Of a stretch of 41,135 nt of DNA, positions 1-40,438 are shown in pieces. Below the pieces are notes generated by a model. That model saw only the letters and a program-made list of their open reading frames with translations, did no database searches and was not told where the DNA came from. The stretch is taken from positions 1-41,135 of the IMG/VR virus record IMGVR_UViG_2909246061_000001. One strand, 5' to 3'. This DNA is from a virus. Taxonomy: Duplodnaviria > Heunggongvirae > Uroviricota > Caudoviricetes. Position 1 is the first letter of the stretch; each line of letters opens with the position of its first letter. Made by a program: the position numbers and the translations under genes.

Positions 1-483
1 ATGTTAGTTAGTAAAAGCAACGGATTTAACGCTAGCGCAGTTTTGGGTAGTGGAAGTTATAATGAAAATAAATCTTCTAAACACATGGAGCTACTAGCTC
101 ATAGTATTTTAAAATTAATTTGTAAGGAAGCTGCATCAGAGACGTATCGCGGTGCTCTTGAAACTTTACAAAAAATGATGTCTGAATGTATATATCAAGA
201 AGGCAACGCCTTTGTCATTATGGGAGCTGGAGAACAATTAAAACGTATTAAATATGAAGTTGGTGAAAATAACTTAAAGGTATTCAACGTACACTTTAAT
301 AATAATCACGAGTTAGTTAGTTCTGGTGAGCCTGACGTAATATGTTTAAGCAAGCAGGTCTGGGAAAATCTTCTCATTAAACTAAAGCTGGAAAACAATG
401 AAAATGTGTTTTCTAAAACTAAAAAATTATCGAATAAAAATAATGCCGATCAGTTTTTTGAATGCGCTAAAAGAAATGAATAG
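1..483 (+). CDS. hypothetical AT-rich protein; start at window edge uncertain; in the same frame as 583..1374 and separated from it only by one TAG
   Basis: ORF track; low GC; frame 1 stays open from 484 to the ATG at 583, so this may be the 5' part of one disrupted gene. Confidence 0.3.
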   Translation: MLVSKSNGFNASAVLGSGSYNENKSSKHMELLAHSILKLICKEAASETYRGALETLQKMMSECIYQEGNAFVIMGAGEQLKRIKYEVGENNLKVFNVHFNNNHELVSSGEPDVICLSKQVWENLLIKLKLENNENVFSKTKKLSNKNNADQFFECAKRNE

Positions 484-582
484 AACCTTTTCGATAATAT
501 AAGAAAAAGTGATTTTCATGTTGGTTTACTTAAGCCAAGTAGTACGCGTAGTGTTATTTTAGAAACGCCGCCAAATGTCTGT

Positions 583-1374
583 ATGGAATCACGTAATTCA
601 TATGAAAACAAAATAGATGAGATTTCATCTTTGTCAGAGTCAAAGGAACACCCCATAGATATTCAAGAAAAAAAAGATGCGTTTGTGAATGAGTTCAAGG
701 GGGTATTATTTGATAAAAATACAAGGTCTTCAGAGCTTCTGTTTAATTTTTATGAGTGTTGCTATAAGTTTTTACCAAGAGCTCAGCCTCAAGATAAAAT
801 CGATAGCTATAATTCAGCACTGCAAGCTTTTTCCATTTTTTGTTCATCTACGTTGACACATAATAATATAGGCTTTGATTTCAAATTATTTCCTGAAGTC
901 AAGCTGTCTGGAGAACATCTTGAAACGGTATTCAAATACAAAAATGGCGATGATGTCCGGGAGATAGCCAAAATTAACATTACTCTCCAAAAAGAAGAGG
1001 GTGGTTTATATAATTTACGTGGATTGGATTTTAAGGGGTGCTTCTTTTCTGGACAGAACTTCAGTAACTATGATATTCAATATGTGAACTGGGGAACGTC
1101 ATTGTTTGATGTTGATACTCCGTGTATTTTTAATACGCCTGCTTACAACAAGAGTAATGAAAAATCATTAAAACCTGTGAGCGAAAACGGTTTAAGTGGA
1201 GTATTGACTGATCGTAATAATAAAATAAAACTCATCACGGGCGTGGCACCATTCGATGATATTTTATTTATGGATGATGACTTTGATGATAGTTCCTCTG
1301 AGGATGATCCCGTTGAGAATAGTCCTGTTGTGACTAGTCCCGTTGTATCAAGTTCTAAAAGCAGTTTTCAATGA
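583..1374 (+). CDS. hypothetical protein with pentapeptide-repeat-like segment (NLRGLDFKGCFFSGQNFSNYD) and acidic Ser/Pro-rich C-terminus; possibly effector-like
   Basis: ORF track; AT-rich composition; no recognisable RBS upstream, consistent with being a continuation of 1..483. Confidence 0.35.
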   Translation: MESRNSYENKIDEISSLSESKEHPIDIQEKKDAFVNEFKGVLFDKNTRSSELLFNFYECCYKFLPRAQPQDKIDSYNSALQAFSIFCSSTLTHNNIGFDFKLFPEVKLSGEHLETVFKYKNGDDVREIAKINITLQKEEGGLYNLRGLDFKGCFFSGQNFSNYDIQYVNWGTSLFDVDTPCIFNTPAYNKSNEKSLKPVSENGLSGVLTDRNNKIKLITGVAPFDDILFMDDDFDDSSSEDDPVENSPVVTSPVVSSSKSSFQ

Positions 1375-1468
1375 TTAATAAATGGCAATTTTTACAAAGA
1401 GATAATAACGTAGATTGAAACAATATGTATTATTGATTGAGTAAACGGGATTATTCTTCACACTACAT

Positions 1469-1543
1469 CCATTTTAGTGTCACTACCAAAGAAAAAGGGG
1501 CTACGTTTTCATGTAACCCCTTGATTTATTTGGTGGGCTGGCA
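1469..1543 (-). repeat. degenerate copy of the ssrA 3' flank: terminator hairpin plus about 13 nt resembling the tmRNA 3' end
   Basis: 1469..1543 aligns with 40013..40086 with a few mismatches (ccattttNNNNNcactaccaaagaaaaaggggctacgYtttcaYgtaaccccttgatttatttggtgg), then diverges. Confidence 0.6.
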
Positions 1544-1721
1544 GTGACTGAATTGGTGCTGTAATTGGTTGAAATATTTCATCTAATGTCTGGTTCAACT
1601 TTCCTTAGCTGCCTGAAAGTTTTTTGATCTTACCCAGCAATAACAGCGTTACGGTGCACCACGCCTGACTGAAGAACTGCGTGCTCAGGGTTACCACTTC
1701 AACGTAAAACCGTGGCAGGAG

Positions 1722-1900
1722 GTCCGGACTGAAAAAACTGGTCAGGACATCATCGGCAGGGAACGCACTGCTAGTCTGTAAACTGAACCGACTGGGGCGC
1801 AGTATGTGGCATCTTGTCGTGCTGTTGGAGGAGCTGTGCGAACGTGGTATTAACTTTCGTGCTCTGGCCCAATCTATATTTGCCCAACAATGGGGGGACG
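1722..1900 (+). pseudogene. internal fragment of a Pin/Hin-family DNA invertase gene, truncated at its 3' side by IS1
   Basis: translation [51 protein letters not shown] matches the intact invertase at 31610..32176 (LKKLLRTLSAGDTLVVWKLDRLGRSMRHLVTLIEELRQRGVNFRSLTDSI); N-terminal catalytic region absent; frame runs into the IS1 end at 1901. Confidence 0.55.
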
Positions 1901-1955
1901 GGTGATGCTGCCAACTTACTGATTTAGTGTATGATGGTGTTTTTGAGGTGCTCCA

Positions 1956-2231
1956 GTGGCTTCTGTTTATATCAGCTGTCCCTCCTGTTCAGCTACTGAC
2001 GGGGTGGTGCGTAACGGTAAAAGTACTGCCGGACATCAGCGCTATCTCTGCTCTCACTGCCGTAAAACATGGCAACTGCAGTTCACTTACACCGCTTCTC
2101 AACCCGGTACGCACCAGAAAATCATTGATATGGCCATGAATGGCGTTGGATGCCGGGCAACCGCCCGCATTATGGGCGTTGGCCTCAACACGATTTTCCG
2201 CCATTTAAAAAACTCAGGCCGCAGTCGGTAA
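1956..2231 (+). CDS. insA: IS1 transposition regulator InsA
   Basis: 91-aa zinc-finger protein [40 protein letters not shown] typical of IS1 InsA. Confidence 0.85.
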
Positions 2232-2653
2232 CCTCGCGCATACAGCCGGGCAGTGACGTCATCGTCTGCGCGGAAATGGACGAACAGTGGGGCTATGTCG
2301 GGGCTAAATCGCGCCAGCGCTGGCTGTTTTACGCGTATGACAGGCTCCGGAAGACGGTTGTTGCGCACGTATTCGGTGAACGCACTATGGCGACGCTGGG
2401 GCGTCTTATGAGCCTGCTGTCACCCTTTGACGTGGTGATATGGATGACGGATGGCTGGCCGCTGTATGAATCCCGCCTGAAGGGAAAGCTGCACGTAATC
2501 AGCAAGCGATATACGCAGCGAATTGAGCGGCATAACCTGAATCTGAGGCAGCACCTGGCACGGCTGGGACGGAAGTCGCTGTCGTTCTCAAAATCGGTGG
2601 AGCTGCATGACAAAGTCATCGGGCATTATCTGAACATAAAACACTATCAATAA
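2150..2653 (+). CDS. insB: IS1 InsB reading frame (expressed as InsAB' transposase by -1 frameshift at the tttaaaaaac motif near 2203..2212)
   Basis: ORF with canonical IS1 InsB sequence (…[29 protein letters not shown]…); A6C slippery run present. Confidence 0.8.
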
Positions 2654-3913
2654 GTTGGGACCATTACCCATTGGGGCATATTTATACTCGTCTATATGAC
2701 AGTTACTTTTTAAAATTTCACCCTTAAAATCCTCAATTATCTCTGAGTAAAATGATCTTAGTGCTTCATTTATTTTGAGATAGCTGTAATCATGTTCTGG
2801 CTTATAACCAATCAAAGTATATGCTCTTAAAAGACCACCAAATCGGGTTCTATAAACAGAAGATGAAGGGCCTGTATCATCTTCATCAATGATAAAGCCT
2901 GATAGTTTTCCATTAGATTCTAATTTTTGTTTTAGTTTTTCTAATAGATCTTCATTAGTCAAATGAATGGATCGGAGCTGAATTATTTCTTGAGCTTTAT
3001 TGTATTTTTTCTTTGAAATAATAGGTTTATATGCCTTGTCACATCTAACCCATTCATGTTTGGGGTTTTTTACAAGCCTACTTTTTAATTTAGATGAGGT
3101 TTTGTTATATATGTTGTTTCCAATATATTTTTCATTTGTCAAAATTTGATGTATTTTTGCACGAGTCCATAATGTTCCATTTTCTGCAGGTATGTTCTGT
3201 TCATTTAATCTCTCAGCAATAATGAATTCTGGGACGTTATTATCTATAAAGAGATCATATATTCTATTTACAATTTTTATTTCATTTTTTGGTCCCGGAA
3301 TTAATATTACCCTATCTGTTTGAATACTCTTTCTTTTGCGGAAACTCAATATTTCTTTAGCTATGCCATTTTCGTCTACTAAAAGACGTCTCAGCCCATA
3401 ACCAGCCATACCGCCTTGATGATAACCAAGCTTTATTAAATTTACTTGCCCTATAAATACCTTATCAGATAGATTCCTGCTGTGATATGCAGCACTAGAT
3501 CTTTTTATATTCAGTATAACAGAGGACTCTAAAGGGAAATCTTTAGTGGGTATAGGTTCGGAACAATATATAAGATCTACACCATTTCTCTCAAATAGAA
3601 AGGAATAATATGCCGCTTCATCACTATTTTGAAAACGACCAAAACGGCTCACATCATAAAATAATACAGCCTGTATATCTATTTTCTTTTGTTCTACATC
3701 GCTAAGTAACTGCTGCAAAGAATGCCTGCCTACGATACTGACTCCGCTCTTACCTGCATCATCGTAGGTATAAGCGATTTCCATATTGTTCTTTTCAGCA
3801 TAATCTTTGATATATTCGGACTGATTATGTAAAGAATATTGCTGATGGTCGGTAGACATCCTCAAGTACTGCGCGACCCTAACTCTATGATTTTTGTCAT
3901 TTTCGCTAGCCAT
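2588..3913 (-). CDS. large serine recombinase (resolvase-type catalytic domain plus recombinase domain); 3' end interrupted by IS1, so the last 27 codons are IS1-derived and the protein is probably non-functional
   Basis: N-terminal YLRMSTDHQ serine-recombinase motif; AT-rich; ORF crosses the IS1 right end at 2668. Confidence 0.6.
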
Positions 3914-4195
3914 GCACGAAACCTCATGGATGATTCAATACAATGTAGTGGATAAAATTGATCAAATTTCAACCGAATTCAACTGTTTTATCATTGATTA
4001 GAGCGAATTTGGTAGATCTTCGAGGTGTATGATAATCGAGAAGAGATGTGAATTATTTAGCTGATATGACCGACAGCTTTCGTTATGTGGACTCAATGTC
4101 CCCATTTGTAAATGGCTATGCTTAGTCCACATAGGTTAATGGTGTGATTATTAATTCTTTAACTAAATCAAGATAGTTAATCCATCATGGGAGAG

Positions 4196-5425
4196 TTATG
4201 CGGCAATAACTTTGCATTTTTGAGACGAAACATAGTCACTCCACCATTGCATGAGAACCACCCGTTCAGTGAGATACTCTGCACGATTGTAGGCTGCAAT
4301 TATTTCATCTTTCTTCGAGTGGGCAAGGGCGGCTTCTAAGACATCAGTCCTAAACTTGCCAGACTCCTCAGCAGCCGTTCTAGCAATGGATCGCATACCG
4401 TGAGCTACAAGCTCACCTCCGAAACCCATACGGATTATGGCCGCATTAGCTGTTTGTTCATGCATGTGATTGAGTGGAGCTTTGATACTGGGGAACACCC
4501 ACTCTCTATGCCCGCTGATGACTTTCATTAAATCCAAAACTCGCAAAGCTTCTTTGCTCAGTGGAACTTTGTGAGGCTTCTTCATTTTCATAAACTCCGC
4601 CGGGATGTTCCACATGCCAGTTTCAATATCAATATCTGACCATCTTGTGCGAACAGCTTCACCTGGGCGAACCCATGTGAGAAGTTGCCACTCAATCAGT
4701 AGCCTTGTTTCCAAACGGATAGAAGCATTGTTTAGAGCAACCAAGAAGCGAGGGAGTTCGGAAGGGGGTAATGCTGGCATATTCTGTTTTTTTGGCTTGC
4801 TGAACCGTTGCCCCAGGTTGTCTGCCGGGTTGAATTCTATGAGTTCTTCTGTTGCTGCATAGCGGAAAATTTCATTCAGGCGGGATATGATGCGGCGAAG
4901 TGTTTCAAGGACACCTCGTTTTTCTATGGGTTCTAAATGCTGTTTAAGCATTTTAGGGCGAATCTCCTTAATTGGGGTATCACCCAATGTGGAAAAGATA
5001 TTTCTCTCTAGGCTTCGCCAGATGTCGTTAGCATGATCTTGGGAGATGCCTGACGTTTTGACTTTCTCATCAAGCCACTTCTTGGCTACTGCTTGAAATG
5101 TATGTTCCGTGGCATCTTTCAGTGCATTGGCTTTTTGGTTGTTATGAACTTGGGGGTCTATACCATTTGTAAGCAACGACAAGTATTCATCACGTAAAGC
5201 TCGTGCCTTCGCAAGTGTAAGGTGAGGATAGGTTCCTAAGCTCACCTTAGTTCGCTTTTTGGTCACAGGCACTGCATATCTGAAATACCAATTTTTCTTC
5301 CCTCCCTTCGCCAGGGGAGCGATTCGCAACAGCAAACCATCGCCGTCAAAAAGGTTAACCTCTTTTTCGGCAGGTTTGGTGCTTTTGATTTCAGTGTCAG
5401 TGAGCTTCTTAGCGATTTTGGCCAT
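4196..5425 (-). CDS. tyrosine integrase, P4/CP4-57 IntA family
   Basis: N-terminus MAKIAKKLTDTEIKSTKP…DGDGLLLRI…WYFRY typical of P4-type integrases; C-terminal catalytic domain with …HGMRSIARTAAEESG… and YNRAEYLTER; probable ATG at 5425 (the track ORF extends to 5506); lies directly beside an ssrA 3'-end copy, as intA does beside ssrA in CP4-57. Confidence 0.85.
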   Translation of the reverse strand: MAKIAKKLTDTEIKSTKPAEKEVNLFDGDGLLLRIAPLAKGGKKNWYFRYAVPVTKKRTKVSLGTYPHLTLAKARALRDEYLSLLTNGIDPQVHNNQKANALKDATEHTFQAVAKKWLDEKVKTSGISQDHANDIWRSLERNIFSTLGDTPIKEIRPKMLKQHLEPIEKRGVLETLRRIISRLNEIFRYAATEELIEFNPADNLGQRFSKPKKQNMPALPPSELPRFLVALNNASIRLETRLLIEWQLLTWVRPGEAVRTRWSDIDIETGMWNIPAEFMKMKKPHKVPLSKEALRVLDLMKVISGHREWVFPSIKAPLNHMHEQTANAAIIRMGFGGELVAHGMRSIARTAAEESGKFRTDVLEAALAHSKKDEIIAAYNRAEYLTERVVLMQWWSDYVSSQKCKVIAA

Positions 5426-5522
5426 GTTTGGGACCCTCGATTTTAGGACCCATCTTCGTGGGTCCCATTCAGGGTGCCATAACTCGTAGTTCTCAGCAAT
5501 TCTCACTAGACTACAATAGACG

Positions 5523-5560
5523 TAAAAAAGCCCGCAGAGCTTGTGCTGTGCGGGCTTAGT
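5523..5560 (-). terminator. rho-independent terminator hairpin downstream (minus sense) of the ssrA 3'-end copy
   Basis: minus-strand gcccgcacagcacaagctctgcgggc followed by tttttt. Confidence 0.45.
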
Positions 5561-5587
5561 AGACTTTACTGAACTTCAGTACATCAA

Positions 5588-5636
5588 TATTTGGTGGAGC
5601 TGGCGGGAGTTGAACCCGCGTCCGAAATTCCTACAT
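5588..5636. repeat. 49-bp direct repeat identical to the ssrA 3' end; left att site of the P2-like prophage
   Basis: 5588..5636 is identical to 40072..40120 and the sequences diverge immediately outside both copies. Confidence 0.85.
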
Positions 5637-5768: not shown

Positions 5769-7289
5769 TTATTCAGGCTTTAATTTATTGATAATAGAAT
5801 CTACCATTTTAATGCCTGCCTCATTGACTATGACTGAATTGACTACTCTATCAAAATAGTCCTCTATATGGTGGGAAAATAGGAAAGCAGCACTTGATGG
5901 TTTTTTGTTCTTTTCAACTGCAGATTGCAAGACTTCATGAGGCGGAATTTTAAACCTTTTGCATGATGCAATGAGATATTCAAACTCTTCAAATGATAGA
6001 CAAAAAATATTCTCTGTAGGGATATGATAGTTATGTTTAAACTTGTCATATATCTTATTCATCTCATCTTTAGCATAAGTATTAGCTAGGATACTACCAT
6101 TGCCTAAGAAAAGGTTTTTATATGTAATGCAAATGATATATGAGTTAGCCCTGAATGGAGCTATTATTCGCTCATTAGAGTATATTTCTCGATTAACTTC
6201 GTGAGATTGTTCGATTGCTTTTAATACCGATTTCTTTATTTTTCCTGCAATATCCTCAGGGCGTAATGTTACCATGCCTTTTTGGTGTATCTCAACGCCT
6301 TTAGCATCAATGAAAATATTTGCCTCAGTATGTGGAATGAAATAATCAACTACTTTATTATCTTTAGGTAGTCGTTCTTTAAGGTATTTTTCGTTATGAA
6401 AATCAATTTCGCTTTCTTTTAGTATTAATTCCAGTGCATTTTCAAATACATTTCCAAAGCTATCCATGAACTTCTCGGCATCAGTTCTTCTTAAAAGATC
6501 ATATATGAACGTCTGTATGCTTGTTGAAGTCAGTTGTGTGTGTATCTGAAAATACTCTGAACCTTTTTTTATTAATGGTTTTTCAAGAAAAGGTGATGAT
6601 GAGTAGTATTCAAGCAAAGGTTTATCATAGGTTTTTGATTTGCAAAATGTAGATAGTTCATTGTAATTTATTGATATTGCATCAAGAAATTTCTCAATGG
6701 TATTTCTAGGAATGATGTCAAATAATATAGTAAATGTATCTACATTCATTTTTCTCACGGGATGCTCTTCTGTTATGTGAGTTATTAATATGTAAGATAG
6801 CTTAAGAAAGTCTTCGATAGATACATTCGTGATAGTAAAAAAACTTTTCTTTATTTTATGGTTTTTTTCAAGTTCTGAAAATAGAAAGACTTGTCTGCTA
6901 ATTGTGTTTAGAGCGTCAATTTTCTGGTAGATTCCTTGTTGGTATAGATTATTTCTAATGAAGAAATGCATGCCATTCTTCCTCTCAAGACCGATAGGAA
7001 TAATGTTCAAGGTTTCATAAGTTTTTTGGAAGAGTTTTATTGCTTGATTTTTATCGAGGATTTTGAATTTTTTATTCTTGCCAGTTACTGACGCAGACCA
7101 CTTTAGACATAAATTAACAATCCAAGGCATGTGTCGTAACATGTGGATATTATCTTCAAATTTTTGTAAGTTATATTGCATACAGAATTCGATAAATAAA
7201 TCAGGGGAATAACCTTGGATTTCTGAACGAATAGCATCCATTCTTAACTTTGCAACCGCATCAGATTGAATATCTAATTTTTGAATCAC
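5769..7289 (-). CDS. hypothetical 506-aa protein; AT-rich cargo gene between the prophage integrase and the left att
   Basis: long ORF with GTG start and GGAGA RBS 13 bp after the int stop; very low GC against the phage backbone; I recognise no fold; possible PD-(D/E)xK-like signature VVDYF…IFIDAKG. Confidence 0.6.
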   Translation of the reverse strand: MIQKLDIQSDAVAKLRMDAIRSEIQGYSPDLFIEFCMQYNLQKFEDNIHMLRHMPWIVNLCLKWSASVTGKNKKFKILDKNQAIKLFQKTYETLNIIPIGLERKNGMHFFIRNNLYQQGIYQKIDALNTISRQVFLFSELEKNHKIKKSFFTITNVSIEDFLKLSYILITHITEEHPVRKMNVDTFTILFDIIPRNTIEKFLDAISINYNELSTFCKSKTYDKPLLEYYSSSPFLEKPLIKKGSEYFQIHTQLTSTSIQTFIYDLLRRTDAEKFMDSFGNVFENALELILKESEIDFHNEKYLKERLPKDNKVVDYFIPHTEANIFIDAKGVEIHQKGMVTLRPEDIAGKIKKSVLKAIEQSHEVNREIYSNERIIAPFRANSYIICITYKNLFLGNGSILANTYAKDEMNKIYDKFKHNYHIPTENIFCLSFEEFEYLIASCKRFKIPPHEVLQSAVEKNKKPSSAAFLFSHHIEDYFDRVVNSVIVNEAGIKMVDSIINKLKPE

Positions 7290-7301
7290 AATAGGTCTCC
7301 A

Positions 7302-8315
7302 CTACAAATTATAAAGAGGATTTTTAGTCACCGCGTCTTCAAGGTGATCGGGCGAAAAGTGGGCGTAAATCATGGTCATTTTTATATCGGCATGACCCAA
7401 AATATCACGCAGTACCAGTATGTTTCCGCCGTTCATCATAAAGTGACTGGCGAATGTATGGCGAAGCACGTGGGTACATTGGCCCTCCGGTAGGTCAATA
7501 CCGGCCCGCTTTACTGCCCGCTCAAAGGCTTTTCTGCATGGCGTGAATAACTTTCCTCTGTTTTTGGGGAGTTCATCATACAGATCCTGAGATATCGGCA
7601 CAGTACGGTTTTTCTTGCCTTTTGTTTTTGTATAAGTAATTCGGTATTTCGATATTTGATGGCCCTGCAGATTTTCGGCTTCACTCCACCGTGCGCCAGT
7701 AGCCAGACATATTTTTGCAATCATTAGTAAGCTAGGGCTTTGAGATTCAGCACATGCCGCCAACAGGCGCTTGATTTCGTCCGTGGAAAGAAAAGCCAGC
7801 TCACCTTCGGCAATTTTGAAGGTCGGAAGTCCTGCCAGCGGGTTTGGTGCTGACCAGTGTCCTAGTTTTTTTAATGTACCGAACACAGATGATAGATTGC
7901 GCTGTTCAAGGTTTACCGTGCGGGGCTTAACGGGCGACATCAGCGTGCCATCTTCATTTCGCACTTCACCTTTTAGCCGTGCTTCGCGGTATTTCGTAAA
8001 GTCACCGGCAGTCAGCTCTGAAGCGATGGGATCGCCCAGACCATTACAGATAATTCCAAGTTTCGCCATGAGTCGCTTGGGGTCTGCGAGTGTTTGACCA
8101 TACAGGGAATACCACAGCTCAATTAATTCTGATAGGTGTCGCCGATCTTCCTTTTCTCCCAGCCAAGGTTTCTTGTTTACCTCGTCCATGGTGAAATTCT
8201 CAAACGCAATGGCTTCGCCTTTCGTCGCAAATTGTTTGCGTACGCGTTTGCCATCTCGCCCGTTTGGGTAGCATTCACATAACCACTTTCCGTTCGGCTG
8301 TTTTCTGATGGTCAT
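7302..8315 (-). CDS. int: P2/186-type tyrosine integrase
   Basis: 337 aa, same length as P2 Int; C-terminal motifs ARWSEA…HVLRHTFASHFMMNGGNILVLRDILGHADIKMTMIYAHF. Confidence 0.9.
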   Translation of the reverse strand: MTIRKQPNGKWLCECYPNGRDGKRVRKQFATKGEAIAFENFTMDEVNKKPWLGEKEDRRHLSELIELWYSLYGQTLADPKRLMAKLGIICNGLGDPIASELTAGDFTKYREARLKGEVRNEDGTLMSPVKPRTVNLEQRNLSSVFGTLKKLGHWSAPNPLAGLPTFKIAEGELAFLSTDEIKRLLAACAESQSPSLLMIAKICLATGARWSEAENLQGHQISKYRITYTKTKGKKNRTVPISQDLYDELPKNRGKLFTPCRKAFERAVKRAGIDLPEGQCTHVLRHTFASHFMMNGGNILVLRDILGHADIKMTMIYAHFSPDHLEDAVTKNPLYNL

Positions 8316-8316
8316 A

Positions 8317-8949
8317 TCAAAGGCTCTTAATGATTTTCAGTGCGCGGCCTATTACCTCAATGTCATCCAGTTCGCACTCAAACGATGAATCATCCTGATG
8401 CACTACTAATCTGTTTCCCGGGAGTCGTGTCAATTTTACAATGCTTTTTATCCCGTCGATGTCCACTAACCACGTACCATTTACTGGTGGTGTTTGGTTG
8501 CGATCTATTAAATAAGAATCACCAGAAGTAGTCACCAGCAGCAGGTTGCTTGAGTCTGAGGGGAGTATGCTGCTATCAATGATTGCTTTTCCAGCATCGA
8601 TCAGCAAACCTCCGTTGAGAGTTGCCTTGTCAATTTCAGGAGATACAAGCTCCGAAAGAGGTTTAACTTTGCTAGAGTTCACGGAATTGATATTTTTTTT
8701 AGGGTCAATGTTTGAACCTGGATCGCCCTGTCCGGTAGTTAGCCACAGTAAAGAAACTCCTGTTTCCAAAGCGCACTGAATCACCCATTCTGCAGGAAAA
8801 CTATCTCTTAAGTATCTGTTTGCCATAGTGCTTTTTGATGCGCCCAAGTGATCGCAAAGTTGCTGTCTGGACTTGAAATCATAGGCTGCCATTAGCCTAT
8901 GGATAGCCTCTCTTCCCCCTGTATTCTCGCCAGCTTTTACTTGTATCAT
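8317..8949 (-). CDS. cI: 186 CI-type immunity repressor
   Basis: N-terminal HTH plus C-terminal region with CALETGVSLLWLTTGQG and TWLVDIDGIKSIVKLTRLPGNRLVV resembling the 186 CI repressor; divergent from the early operon. Confidence 0.75.
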   Translation of the reverse strand: MIQVKAGENTGGREAIHRLMAAYDFKSRQQLCDHLGASKSTMANRYLRDSFPAEWVIQCALETGVSLLWLTTGQGDPGSNIDPKKNINSVNSSKVKPLSELVSPEIDKATLNGGLLIDAGKAIIDSSILPSDSSNLLLVTTSGDSYLIDRNQTPPVNGTWLVDIDGIKSIVKLTRLPGNRLVVHQDDSSFECELDDIEVIGRALKIIKSL

Positions 8950-8961
8950 TTTTTAATCCTG

Positions 8962-9013
8962 TTGACGTATCAAATATTGGATCGTAGTATCTTGGTGTAT
9001 CAAATATTGAATC
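8962..9013. promoter_or_regulatory. putative early promoter/operator region between cI and the rightward early operon
   Basis: two 17-bp direct repeats gtatcaaatattgRatc (8967..8983 and 8997..9013); TTGACG (8962..8967) 17 bp before TAGTAT (8985..8990) reads as a rightward promoter overlapping the first repeat. Confidence 0.35.
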
Positions 9014-40071: not shown

Positions 40072-40120
40072 TATTTGGTGGAGCTGGCGGGAGTTGAACC
40101 CGCGTCCGAAATTCCTACAT
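40072..40120. repeat. 49-bp direct repeat at the prophage right junction, overlapping the ssrA 3' end
   Basis: identical to 5588..5636. Confidence 0.85.
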
Positions 40121-40438
40121 CCTCGGTACTACATGCTTAGTCAGTCTTTACATTCGCTTGCCAGCTGCGGACGGACACGCCACTAACAAACTAGCCTGAT
40201 TAAGTTTTAACGCTTCAACCCCAGGCAGGGCTTCCACGCGATCTCTTTTGGGTTTGACCTCTCTTGATCCCCGTCCTAAGAGCGGAGGCTAGGGAGAGAG
40301 GGCTCTAAGCAGGTTATTAAGCTGCTAAAGCGTAGTTTTCGTCGTTTGCGACTATTTTTTGCGGCTTTTTACGAGGCCAACCGCCCCTCGGCATGCACCT
40401 TGGGTTTCGCAAATCCCGTCGAATCCAGAATCAGCCCC
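40076..40438 (-). ncRNA. ssrA: tmRNA (SsrA), 363 nt, intact
   Basis: reverse complement reads GGGGCTGATTCTGGATTCGACGGGATTTGCGAAACCCAAGGTGCATGCC…GGACGCGGGTTCAACTCCCGCCAGCTCCACCA, matching E. coli tmRNA end to end. Confidence 0.95.

Follow-up and report, generated by a model that had tools for sequence, protein, structure and literature searches.

Simple insertion of IS1 leaves a target-site duplication of 8-9 bp. The copy considered here has none, and it sits between the remnants of two recombinase genes in a viral record of the Caudoviricetes (IMGVR_UViG_2909246061_000001, analysed as one stretch of 41,135 nucleotides and referred to below as the window). How did an intact insertion sequence come to lie between these two pieces of DNA? 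The original prediction, made from the sequence alone, favoured an IS1-mediated adjacent deletion or recombination between two IS1 copies over simple insertion, and this is supported by comparison with related genomes, in which the flanks are not contiguous and a series of similar alleles exists. With a probability of about 80%, the window IS1 marks a deletion joint in a variable Escherichia coli genomic island beside the tmRNA gene ssrA, and descends from a copy of the type found in strain ECCWS199 by two one-sided losses of DNA. Coordinates of the features discussed are collected in Table 1.

Table 1. Features of the window on either side of the IS1 element, with the sequences diagnostic of its two joints
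Feature	Position	Strand	Remarks
ypjC/ypjB	1..1374	+	chromosomal context left of the joint; ORFs at 1..483 and 583..1374; in RefSeq a 'YpjCB family protein, internal stop'
Putative IS3-family transposase scrap	1647..1715	+	adjoins 5' side of invertase scrap; from translation
pinH, internal fragment of a small serine invertase gene	1711..1899	+	old pseudogene; by homology
IS1, complete	1901..2668 (768 bp)	+	IRL 1901-1923, IRR 2646-2668
insA	1956..2231 (91 aa)	+	open frame
insB frame	2150..2653 (167 aa)	+	open frame
IS1-encoded tail of fusion ORF	2588..2668	-	26 codons + stop
Large serine recombinase, truncated	2669..3913	-	codons 1-415 of 518; last 103 codons deleted
Imperfect palindrome, 50 bp	4084..4133		24-nt arms, 18/24 complementary; GT centre
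P4/CP4-57-type tyrosine integrase of ssrA island	4196..5425	-	Arm-DNA-bind_3, Phage_int_M, Phage_integrase (Pfam)
Duplicate of ssrA 3' end, 45 bp	5592..5636	-	identical to 40076-40120
tmRNA gene ssrA	40076..40438		3' end = 40076-40120
Joint k-mers, one per joint			CAACAATGGGGGGACGGGTGATGCTGCC and CATTACCCATTGGGGCATATTTATACTCG

A complete IS1 with an uncommon right end

The element had been described as an IS1 with intact inverted repeats, and its length, left end and open insA and insB frames all agree with that description. Its left inverted repeat, GGTGATGCTGCCAACTTACTGAT, has no other copy in the window. It matches exactly what we take to be the usual left end of IS1 (imperfect repeats of about 23 bp bounding an element of about 768 bp), and the same 23 bases are found in all 15 of the other IS1 copies compared. 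The right end, ...ATCAATAAGTTGGGACCATTACC, is a minority end-variant (...GGGACCATTACC), and its repeat is complementary to the left one at 19 of 23 positions by hand count on the sequences. Aligned over its full length, the element is 92.7-99.9% identical to 14 copies annotated by RefSeq as IS1-family transposases and 84.8% identical to a fifteenth, in the low-quality assembly L023. In the IS1 family a -1 frameshift at an A-run joins the insA and insB' frames; here a frameshift motif, TTAAAAAAC, lies at about position 2205, and RefSeq annotates a copy with 2 differences in 768 positions as an IS1B-family transposase with a programmed frameshift. As judged from its sequence, the window IS1 is apparently complete and functional.

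Copies at the same locus differ from it at a single position in strain E3, at two in ECCWS199 and at 12-56 in other lineages. The 3' end variant of the window was found, at an identity of at least 99%, in 323 of 9,382 IS1-bearing records. It also occurs in a different island, close to mutS, where its neighbour is a type I restriction system. Because the variant occurs elsewhere, its presence in two genomes points to a related pool of IS1 elements and not strictly to identity by descent of the window copy. The occurrence near mutS emerged from a test of whether the variant is a fixed resident of the ssrA island. Another IS1 lies beside the type I restriction system of a fuller ssrA island; it is only 735 bp long owing to an internal deletion, and this deletion, together with the occurrence near mutS, led to the claim of direct ancestry from that copy being dropped as one that cannot be shown.

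Joints without a target-site duplication

The 9-mers that abut the element, GGGGGGACG on the left (1892-1900) and CATTGGGGC on the right (2669-2677), do not form a duplication. Since alignment to relatives fixes the breakpoints unambiguously between 1900 and 1901 and between 2668 and 2669, no shift of coordinates rescues one, and the earlier statement that the flanks are not a direct repeat holds. The same script, applied as a positive control to three simple IS1 insertions within the locus, returned perfect 9-bp duplications for each: AGATTCCTG in L008, where IS1 lies inside the serine recombinase gene, and GATATCTGC and CTGCCTTGA in L021 and L022, respectively, where it lies in ypjA. At a deletion joint the absence of a duplication is expected and so does not count against the identity of the element as IS1. 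An 8-bp match between the left flank of the window and the flank of an IS1 in strain MDK6L1 contains mismatches and was discarded as a chance resemblance. The flanks have a G+C content of 33-37%, compared with 53% for the IS1.

Neither joint was recovered from 5,426 complete E. coli genomes with 100-bp joint queries, the exact joint patterns are absent from species-representative genomes and from JGI metagenome contigs, and an exact look-up of the 441-aa protein encoded across the right joint returned no record. The window is a single assembly, and an assembler could in principle have collapsed two or more IS1 copies, situated at the two joints with other DNA between them, into one. The absence of both joints from the collections searched would fit such an artefact, as would the multi-copy nature of this 768-bp repeat, for which the median is 10-11 places among E. 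coli genomes having any. It is nevertheless very unlikely, given that alleles with a deletion and a single IS1 occur at this locus in many independently finished genomes. Even if it were true, both joints would still be real junctions between IS1 and flank without duplications, and an IS1-associated rearrangement would remain.

Flanks that lie apart in relatives

In E. coli relatives with which the window was compared, the two flanks are not contiguous. The left part, 1..1900, is 99.9% identical to positions 2,785,011..2,783,112 of K-12 MG1655. In the closest relative, ECCWS199 (L001), it corresponds to 452..2351 at 99.95% identity, and window 2669..5636 corresponds to 6001..8968 at 100%. Between these segments ECCWS199 has 548 bp, an IS1 and a further 2,333 bp, in the last of which lie a pair of ParB-like genes and the recombinase 3' end. 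Its IS1 agrees with that of the window in orientation and in the rare right-end variant, with 2 differences in 768 positions. Wherever a relative retains both flanks, these are at least 2.9 kb apart. One fuller island, L018, has more than 10 kb of extra cargo beyond the ParB genes, and a right side without IS1 exists in L005.

This spacing bears directly on the notion that IS1 inserted simply and that point mutations later erased its 9-bp duplication, which is a general possibility in the literature (PMC11708052). For the window its probability is close to nil: the distance between the flanks already refutes it, the two 9-mers are alike in no register, and a flank identity of 99.9-100% leaves no room for nine substitutions.

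The window is one of a series of comparable alleles. IS1 stands at other joints of the locus in at least 10 other strains, none with a duplication. One left joint, AACGAGGTA followed directly by IS1, is common to L001 and L003, and the right joint of L003 lies deeper in the recombinase gene. Another left joint, CGGGAGCCG followed directly by IS1, is common to L002 and L013, the right joints of which differ. More duplication-free deletions bounded by IS1 were found in L006, L007, L009, L010, L011 and L012. Because the locus hits were collected by a query joining pieces on one strand only, the uniform plus orientation of IS1 among these relatives is partly a selection effect and not evidence of common descent.

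Two proposed one-sided losses around a resident IS1

The proposed history would begin with an arrangement like that of ECCWS199, in which ypjCB, the pinH scrap, 386 bp and the first 162 bp of ypjA lead up to IS1, and 242 bp, the two ParB-like genes, the large serine recombinase gene, the integrase gene and ssrA follow it. The resident IS1 would have kept its place and orientation while DNA was lost on either side in two separate one-sided events; two are needed because the presumed resident copy has lost DNA to its left as well as to its right. The left loss would have removed 548 bp and stopped where the pinH scrap ends, and the right loss would have removed 2,333 bp and stopped at recombinase codon 415. 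Each may have been an adjacent deletion, in which one end of IS1 transposes replicatively into a nearby target on the same molecule and the DNA in between is lost. Alternatively, a new IS1 copy may each time have hopped over a short range and then recombined homologously with the resident one. Both pathways would leave a single IS1 without a target-site duplication; they are indistinguishable on present data. Both ParB-like genes would have been lost in the process, and the recombinase gene truncated and fused to 26 IS1 codons. No genome in the collections searched has an intermediate with just one of the two joints of the window, and neither joint was found elsewhere in them; for this reason the two-step history and its order are what we infer from the alleles at hand. 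Descent from an ECCWS199-type copy and the molecular pathway are inferred as well, whereas the lack of a duplication, the separation of the flanks in relatives and the series of alleles are directly shown. A search for a simple-insertion precursor of the ECCWS199-type IS1, in which IS1 would carry its 9-bp duplication and ypjA would continue beyond it, gave no full-length single-piece match of high identity.

Deletions adjacent to IS1 in the gal region were reportedly described by Reif and Saedler in 1975. In clinical E. coli, IS1-adjacent deletions of 11-66 kb, including nfsB, have been reported with reference to that study (PMC10569738). IS1 hops locally, and IS1-IS1 recombination frequently gives rise to deletions, mostly of 1-3 kb intervals (PMC5009759). 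Missing duplications have been put down to recombination between insertion sequences or to adjacent deletions (PMC11708052). The window resembles these known cases of adjacent deletion, or of local hopping with recombination, in that an intact IS1 lies exactly at the joint with its orientation retained and without a 9-bp duplication, in that relatives hold nested alleles with one joint fixed and the other variable, and in that the setting is AT-rich acquired DNA. It differs from them, though not in kind, in having a pair of joints that occurs in no collection searched.

A similar product could also come from two independent simple IS1 insertions in the same orientation, one at 1900/1901 immediately beyond the pinH scrap and the other at recombinase codon 415, each with its own 9-bp duplication, if RecA-dependent recombination then removed all the DNA between them and merged them into one hybrid IS1 and the ECCWS199-type copy played no part. 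In its favour, simple insertions occur in the locus (L008, L021 and L022), counts of places per record put the number of IS1 copies in strains of these lineages in the tens, and deletions by IS1-IS1 recombination are frequent (PMC5009759). Such a history is unlikely all the same: the collections searched yielded neither of the precursor insertions, and the window IS1 is no mosaic of two isoforms. Moreover, a nearly identical IS1 already lies between the breakpoints in the closest relatives, so that descent from that copy is the more economical account.

The phenomenon itself is a textbook one. Gene loss driven by insertion sequences is well known, and it is this exact allele that is absent from the collections searched; the import of the finding beyond annotation is small. 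Because the joint pair was not found in the complete E. coli genomes or the other collections, the allele could be used to mark its lineage. More broadly, the locus illustrates clearly how, in nature, IS1 repeatedly erodes acquired DNA that is rich in AT.

Two recombinase remnants of different origin

The right-hand gene runs into IS1, as originally described; the 27 codons that IS1 was said to supply correspond to 26 codons and a stop. The resulting fusion ORF extends from 3913 to 2588 on the minus strand and encodes 441 aa. The intact gene of relatives encodes 518 aa (WP_000135613.1), and window 2669..3913 is 100% identical to L001 6001..7245, which belongs to a gene of full length; residues 416-518 are the part missing from the window copy. 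Within the fusion ORF, a Resolvase domain (PF00239) covers residues 14-152 (1.9e-21), and a Recombinase domain (PF07508) follows this catalytic domain at residues 210-312 (5e-22). The catalytic domain aligns with those of TP901-1 integrase and TnpX, and the PF07508 region aligns with residues 189-310 of SPbeta YokA. A conserved R-x-S-T at residues 18-21 (YLRMSTDHQ), recognized by eye, looks like the nucleophile motif.

An N-terminal resolvase-type catalytic domain followed by a Recombinase domain is likewise the layout of TP901-1 integrase, TnpX, SPbeta SprA/YokA and CcrB. The window gene differs from these known large serine recombinases in that its scores fall far below any family-specific cut-off (for CcrB, 62 bits versus 900) and in that the gene of relatives lies inside the island and not at an element boundary. 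There it is co-oriented with the first of the two ParB/RepB-like genes, which it overlaps by about 10 bases. Large serine recombinases need a C-terminal DNA-binding part (zinc ribbon, coiled coil), and the truncated, IS1-fused protein, which has lost its C-terminal part, is presumably inactive for that reason; Pfam detected no zinc-ribbon profile in the full-length 518-aa protein. The 441-aa ORF is a fusion pseudogene for which annotation as a recombinase is unwarranted.

The left-hand remnant has a different history. The region 1711 to about 1899 is homologous to residues 41-95 of the Gin DNA-invertase (E = 6e-12) and to positions 48-102 of the Pfam Resolvase profile (2.2e-9). Its 63 codons include neither the catalytic N-terminus (Ser near residue 9-10) nor the C-terminal helix-turn-helix. 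The scrap is annotated in K-12 as the pseudogene pinH (b2648), and wherever a fetched relative retains it, the RefSeq label is 'recombinase family protein, missing N- and C-terminus'. The transposase scrap on its 5' side (1647..1715) is presumably from the OrfB of an IS600-like member of the IS3 family. The invertase frame does run into the IS1 end, as had been noticed, to a TGA at 1903-1905. Truncation by IS1 does not stand, because in genomes without IS1 at this spot the homology already stops at the equivalent of window positions 1881-1899. It follows that only the serine recombinase gene was truncated in the IS1 event. The invertase scrap is, on these alignments, an uninvolved bystander, an old pseudogene unrelated to that event, and as such an annotation point. 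Two recombinase remnants do flank the IS1, but the pairing is a coincidence of neighbourhood and not a functional pattern.

The ssrA island and its tandem prophage

The longest ORF of the tyrosine integrase reaches a GTG at 5506; the RefSeq start is an ATG, for a gene of 1,230 bp. The protein belongs to NCBIfam PRK09692 (444 bits) and is WP_001062342.1 in relatives. The island remnant and a tandem P2-like prophage are separated by an att repeat, namely the 45-bp duplicate of the 3' end of ssrA. As in CP4-57, the intA region of K-12, the chromosomal site is the 3' end of ssrA and the integrase is of the PRK09692 family, and the neighbours from right to left are, as in K-12, ypjA, pinH, ypjB, ypjC and ileY. 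Unlike CP4-57, the fuller islands of relatives carry as cargo the large serine recombinase, two ParB-like genes and a type I restriction system. The island of the window differs again from the K-12 one in that only the integrase gene and 80% of the recombinase gene survive and a P2-like prophage lies in tandem at ssrA. Since the far end of the island has been lost, including any distal att repeat, integrase-driven excision of the remnant is probably impossible, and the remnant, composed of the integrase and the truncated recombinase, is probably immobile.

A palindrome and a possible three-gene cassette

A 9-bp inverted repeat had also been noted between the serine recombinase and integrase genes, ATGTGGACT at 4085-4093 and AGTCCACAT at 4124-4132. 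It is real, and constitutes the outer part of a 50-bp imperfect palindrome. Bare 9-bp inverted repeats are at chance level, with 21 seeds in the window versus about 9 in shuffles; the 50-bp palindrome is the only match of its class in the window, and shuffles have a mean of 0.1. A divergent allele in L002, L005 and L013 has three changes, in the left arm, and the L005 allele is still complementary at 18 of 24 positions by hand count. A candidate second copy beyond the ParB genes agrees at 27 of 50 positions, which is background, and the palindrome was rejected as a terminator. In Agrobacterium and Piscinibacter, the stretches upstream of the homologous genes yielded no comparable palindrome.

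The palindrome, together with the proximity of recombinase genes, could be taken to mean that a neighbouring site-specific recombinase (the serine recombinase, the invertase or the integrase) made the rearrangement and that IS1 is incidental. Hardly any credence can be given to this, as each breakpoint falls, to the base, on an IS1 terminus and other IS1 copies show the same pattern at many further positions. Besides, the invertase is an internal scrap without its catalytic N-terminus, and no second copy of the palindrome was found in the fuller island.

More tentatively, the truncated gene may be the first of a widely dispersed, uncharacterized three-gene cassette, made up of a large serine recombinase and two ParB/RepB-like proteins, that travels as cargo of unrelated mobile elements and is perhaps a self-contained system with the 50-bp palindrome, which lies upstream of the recombinase gene, as its DNA site. 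This is a doubtful reading. PADLOC gave no match for the recombinase or the first ParB-like protein, and a literature search on the three-gene cassette turned up nothing relevant. Were it correct, the cassette could be a defence or stabilization module or a small self-mobile unit, its repeated IS1-bounded loss in E. coli lineages would amount to the loss of a dispensable or costly system, and the window would hold a dead remnant only. Examples of the cassette are found in the ssrA island of E. coli, in a Tn7-like transposon on a Piscinibacter plasmid and on the Agrobacterium plasmid pAtC58, where it adjoins AbiE and Fic genes.

An IS1 element without a target-site duplication

The window is made up of chromosome of the E. 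coli type, in which a regular IS1 sits between a leftover piece of a small serine invertase gene and a truncated large serine recombinase gene. The left inverted repeat of the element exactly matches the usual IS1 left-end sequence, and the same 23 bases are found in all other IS1 copies compared. The right repeat is a variant (...GGGACCATTACC), which is shared at ≥99% identity by just 323 of the 9,382 records that carry IS1. The insA and insB frames are open and the A-run frameshift motif is present.

The 9-mers adjoining the element, GGGGGGACG (1892-1900) and CATTGGGGC (2669-2677), differ, and no target-site duplication is found on comparing them, as the original prediction had claimed. Since alignment to relatives fixes the breakpoints exactly at 1900|1901 and 2668|2669, the missing duplication is not a coordinate error, and none appears on correcting the coordinates. 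As a control, the same script was run on simple IS1 insertions at the same locus in other strains, where it found three perfect 9-bp duplications, namely AGATTCCTG for an insertion inside the recombinase gene and GATATCTGC and CTGCCTTGA for two that lie within ypjA, an autotransporter gene, at its 5' end. Similar octamers, CAATGGGG (1888-1895) and CATTGGGG (2669-2676), lie near the two breakpoints; their registers relative to the joints differ and the likeness is probably due to chance.

Features of the window and recombinase-ParB cassettes of related loci
Feature	Coordinates	Remarks
ypjC/ypjB	1..1374	internal stop present
Scrap of IS3-family transposase gene, 23 codons	1647-1715	abuts 5' end of pinH scrap
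Small serine invertase gene, internal scrap (pinH)	1711..~1899	
IS1	1901..2668	768 bp
Large serine recombinase gene	start codon at 3913	minus strand
Spacer, recombinase to integrase		282 bp
Tyrosine integrase gene, P4/CP4-57-type	4196..5425	minus strand
ssrA 3' end duplicate, 45 bp	5592-5636	
P2-like prophage	between 45-bp ssrA duplicate and ssrA	
tmRNA gene ssrA	40076..40438	smpB next
Cassette	L001:3910-7245	E. coli ECCWS199, ssrA island
Cassette	L024:5001-8340	Agrobacterium fabrum C58, pAtC58; beside AbiE and Fic genes
Cassette	L025:4899-8304	Piscinibacter plasmid; cargo of Tn7-like transposon

DNA missing on both sides of the element

The closest relative, E. coli ECCWS199, matches the window on either side of IS1, with 99.95% identity between window 1..1900 and positions 452..2351 of its locus (L001) and 100% identity between window 2669..5636 and L001 6001..8968. 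The flanks are not adjacent in this relative. Between them lie 548 bp made up of a spacer plus 162 bp from the start of ypjA, an IS1 of the same orientation and right-end variant that differs from the window copy at 2 of 768 positions, and 2,333 bp made up of a 242-bp stretch, a pair of ParB/RepB-like genes and the final 103 codons of the recombinase gene. Because the extra segments flank its IS1, the window is without DNA on both sides of that site. There is no duplication at the ECCWS199 element either. In K-12 the left flank corresponds to 2,785,011..2,783,112, and the CP4-57 element does not include ypjA, pinH, ypjB and ypjC, which are found past its ssrA repeat; what is missing thus takes in the far end of the ssrA island together with chromosome next to it. 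Locus L005 of another relative lacks IS1 and has the integrase, the recombinase and the two ParB-like genes, and a fuller island (L018) contains ssrA, integrase, recombinase, two ParB-like genes, an IS scrap, hsdM, hsdS, hsdR, IS1 and an ankyrin gene.

On the right, the open reading frame 3913..2588 encodes 441 aa, has both large serine recombinase domains, Resolvase and Recombinase, and shows homology to TP901-1 integrase, TnpX and SPbeta YokA. Of its codons, 1-415 are native; the IS1 end supplies the other 26 and the stop, which accounts for the 27 codons originally attributed to IS1. The intact recombinase is 518 aa long. The gene is a regular member of its family, now truncated.

On the left, the scrap aligns with Gin invertase residues 41-95 and is the K-12 pseudogene pinH (b2648). 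Its frame does enter IS1, as first reported, and stops at a TGA at 1903-1905, but IS1 is not what truncated it: in K-12 and every fetched relative that is IS1-free there, invertase homology stops at the window equivalent of 1881-1899 and gives way to unrelated AT-rich DNA towards ypjA. Through IS1, the open frame annotated in K-12 has lost its final 47 bp and none of its invertase-like codons. Of the two flanking genes, only the recombinase gene was cut short by the IS1 event. Since pinH is an old scrap that IS1 did not truncate, the recombinase remnants on both sides of the element are a coincidence of neighbourhood. The IS3-family scrap is present in all relatives, K-12 included, and its position against the 5' end of pinH indicates that an older IS event cut pinH on that side. 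Somewhat surprisingly, the left breakpoint falls at most about 20 bp from the end of homology (1881-1900), a closeness with a chance of roughly 20 in 548 for an endpoint uniform over the deleted stretch. A sharp switch from GC-rich to AT-rich DNA also occurs at this breakpoint, and its position may reflect coincidence or a target preference at the AT-rich change.

A series of IS1-bounded deletions

Nine further loci carry IS1 with curtailed flanks, and duplications are absent at the element in all of them (L002, L003, L006, L007, L009-L013).

IS1-bounded alleles of the locus in other strains
Strain or locus	Left of IS1	Right of IS1
E3 (L003)	ECCWS199 joint	recombinase cut to about 690 bp
MDK6L1 (L002)	1,242 bp of ypjA	ParB fragment
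AH21 (L013)	MDK6L1 joint	recombinase cut to 93 bp
L006	IS3	recombinase, 1,407 bp
L007	glaH side	ParB fragment
L009	ypjCB, 285 bp	ParB fragment
L010	ygaQ	recombinase, 1,101 bp
L011	ygaQ	recombinase, 1,041 bp
L012	ypjA, 1,494 bp	recombinase, 819 bp

Pairs of alleles with one joint in common and the other different are what deletions spreading from a resident IS classically leave behind. The IS1 copies at the locus comprise several isoforms, 12-56 positions off that of the window, so that several independent arrivals are involved; those of the window, ECCWS199 and E3 form a group only 1-3 differences apart. That a repeat was collapsed in assembly is unlikely, as many finished genomes show alleles of this type.

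On the best-supported reading, the window arose from an arrangement like that of ECCWS199 through two one-sided losses beside the resident IS1, one of 548 bp to its left and one of 2,333 bp to its right. Each loss could have proceeded by intramolecular replicative transposition ("adjacent deletion"), or a new copy could have hopped a short distance and then recombined with the resident one; either route would leave a single IS1 and no duplication. The data do not distinguish the two, and the literature supports each. Missing duplications have been put down to IS-IS recombination or adjacent deletion (PMC11708052). IS1 prefers nearby sites for its hops, and intervals deleted by IS-IS recombination are mostly 1-3 kb (PMC5009759), while IS1-adjacent deletions are seen in clinical isolates (PMC10569738, citing Reif and Saedler 1975). 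Two fresh IS1 insertions followed by recombination between them are an improbable origin, one that stays in consideration because no intermediate with one window joint was found in any collection searched. The non-adjacent flanks and the allele series bear out the proposal of adjacent deletion or IS1-IS1 recombination over simple insertion. As the exact pair of joints is absent from every collection searched, the allele is private, yet there is nothing new in kind: the event is a textbook case of IS-bounded deletion.

Within about the first 170 bp of ypjA lie four or more distinct left joints of IS1 (L020, L021, L022 and L001), at about 60, 64, 118 and 162 bp into the gene as reckoned from coordinates, two of them with intact 9-bp duplications. 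The pattern suggests a local hot spot for IS1 in the AT-rich 5' end of ypjA. Another copy, 735 bp long with an internal deletion and the right-end variant of the window (L018:14346-15080; L014:5366-6100; L016:5366-6100), lies 45 bp away from where hsdR of a type I restriction system ends. This arrangement is found in the ssrA island and again in another island, near mutS, suggesting that the IS1-hsd block travels between islands as a unit.

The recombinase cassette and a palindrome upstream of it

The only thread with some novelty lies outside the IS1 finding. Together, the recombinase gene and the two ParB/RepB-like genes make up a conserved cassette of three co-oriented, overlapping genes, whose proteins share 44-46% identity across Alpha-, Beta- and Gammaproteobacteria; positions 2669-3913 are all that is left of it in the window. 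No description of the cassette was found in the literature searched. In PADLOC, the recombinase and the first ParB-like protein have no match and the second matches only a Type II methyltransferase model.

The 9-bp inverted repeat noted earlier between the recombinase genes is present as ATGTGGACT (4085-4093) and AGTCCACAT (4124-4132). Alone it is at chance level, the window having 21 seeds of this kind and shuffles about 9. It makes up the outer portion of a 50-bp imperfect palindrome (4084-4133) with 24-nt arms, 18/24 complementary, around a GT centre, the sole one of its class in the 41-kb window (shuffles mean 0.1). Measured from the recombinase start codon the palindrome is 171-220 bp upstream, and from the integrase stop it is 63 bp downstream; it is not a terminator. 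No second copy was found in the fuller island, nor a counterpart upstream of the homologous genes in Agrobacterium and Piscinibacter. In a 96%-identical allele, three changes fall in one arm and complementarity remains 18/24 (hand count, L005 sequence). Its shape is like that of large serine recombinase sites or an operator, which is only a resemblance.

Tandem integration at ssrA

The tmRNA gene ssrA is a well-known integration hot spot, and here a P2-like prophage and the island remnant are integrated in tandem (5592-40438). The 45-bp repeats of the ssrA 3' end at 5592-5636 and 40076-40120 bound the prophage. Beside its integrase gene (7302-8315) lies a 506-aa gene (5769-7289) which RefSeq names gapS1, or GapS1 family protein, in relatives.
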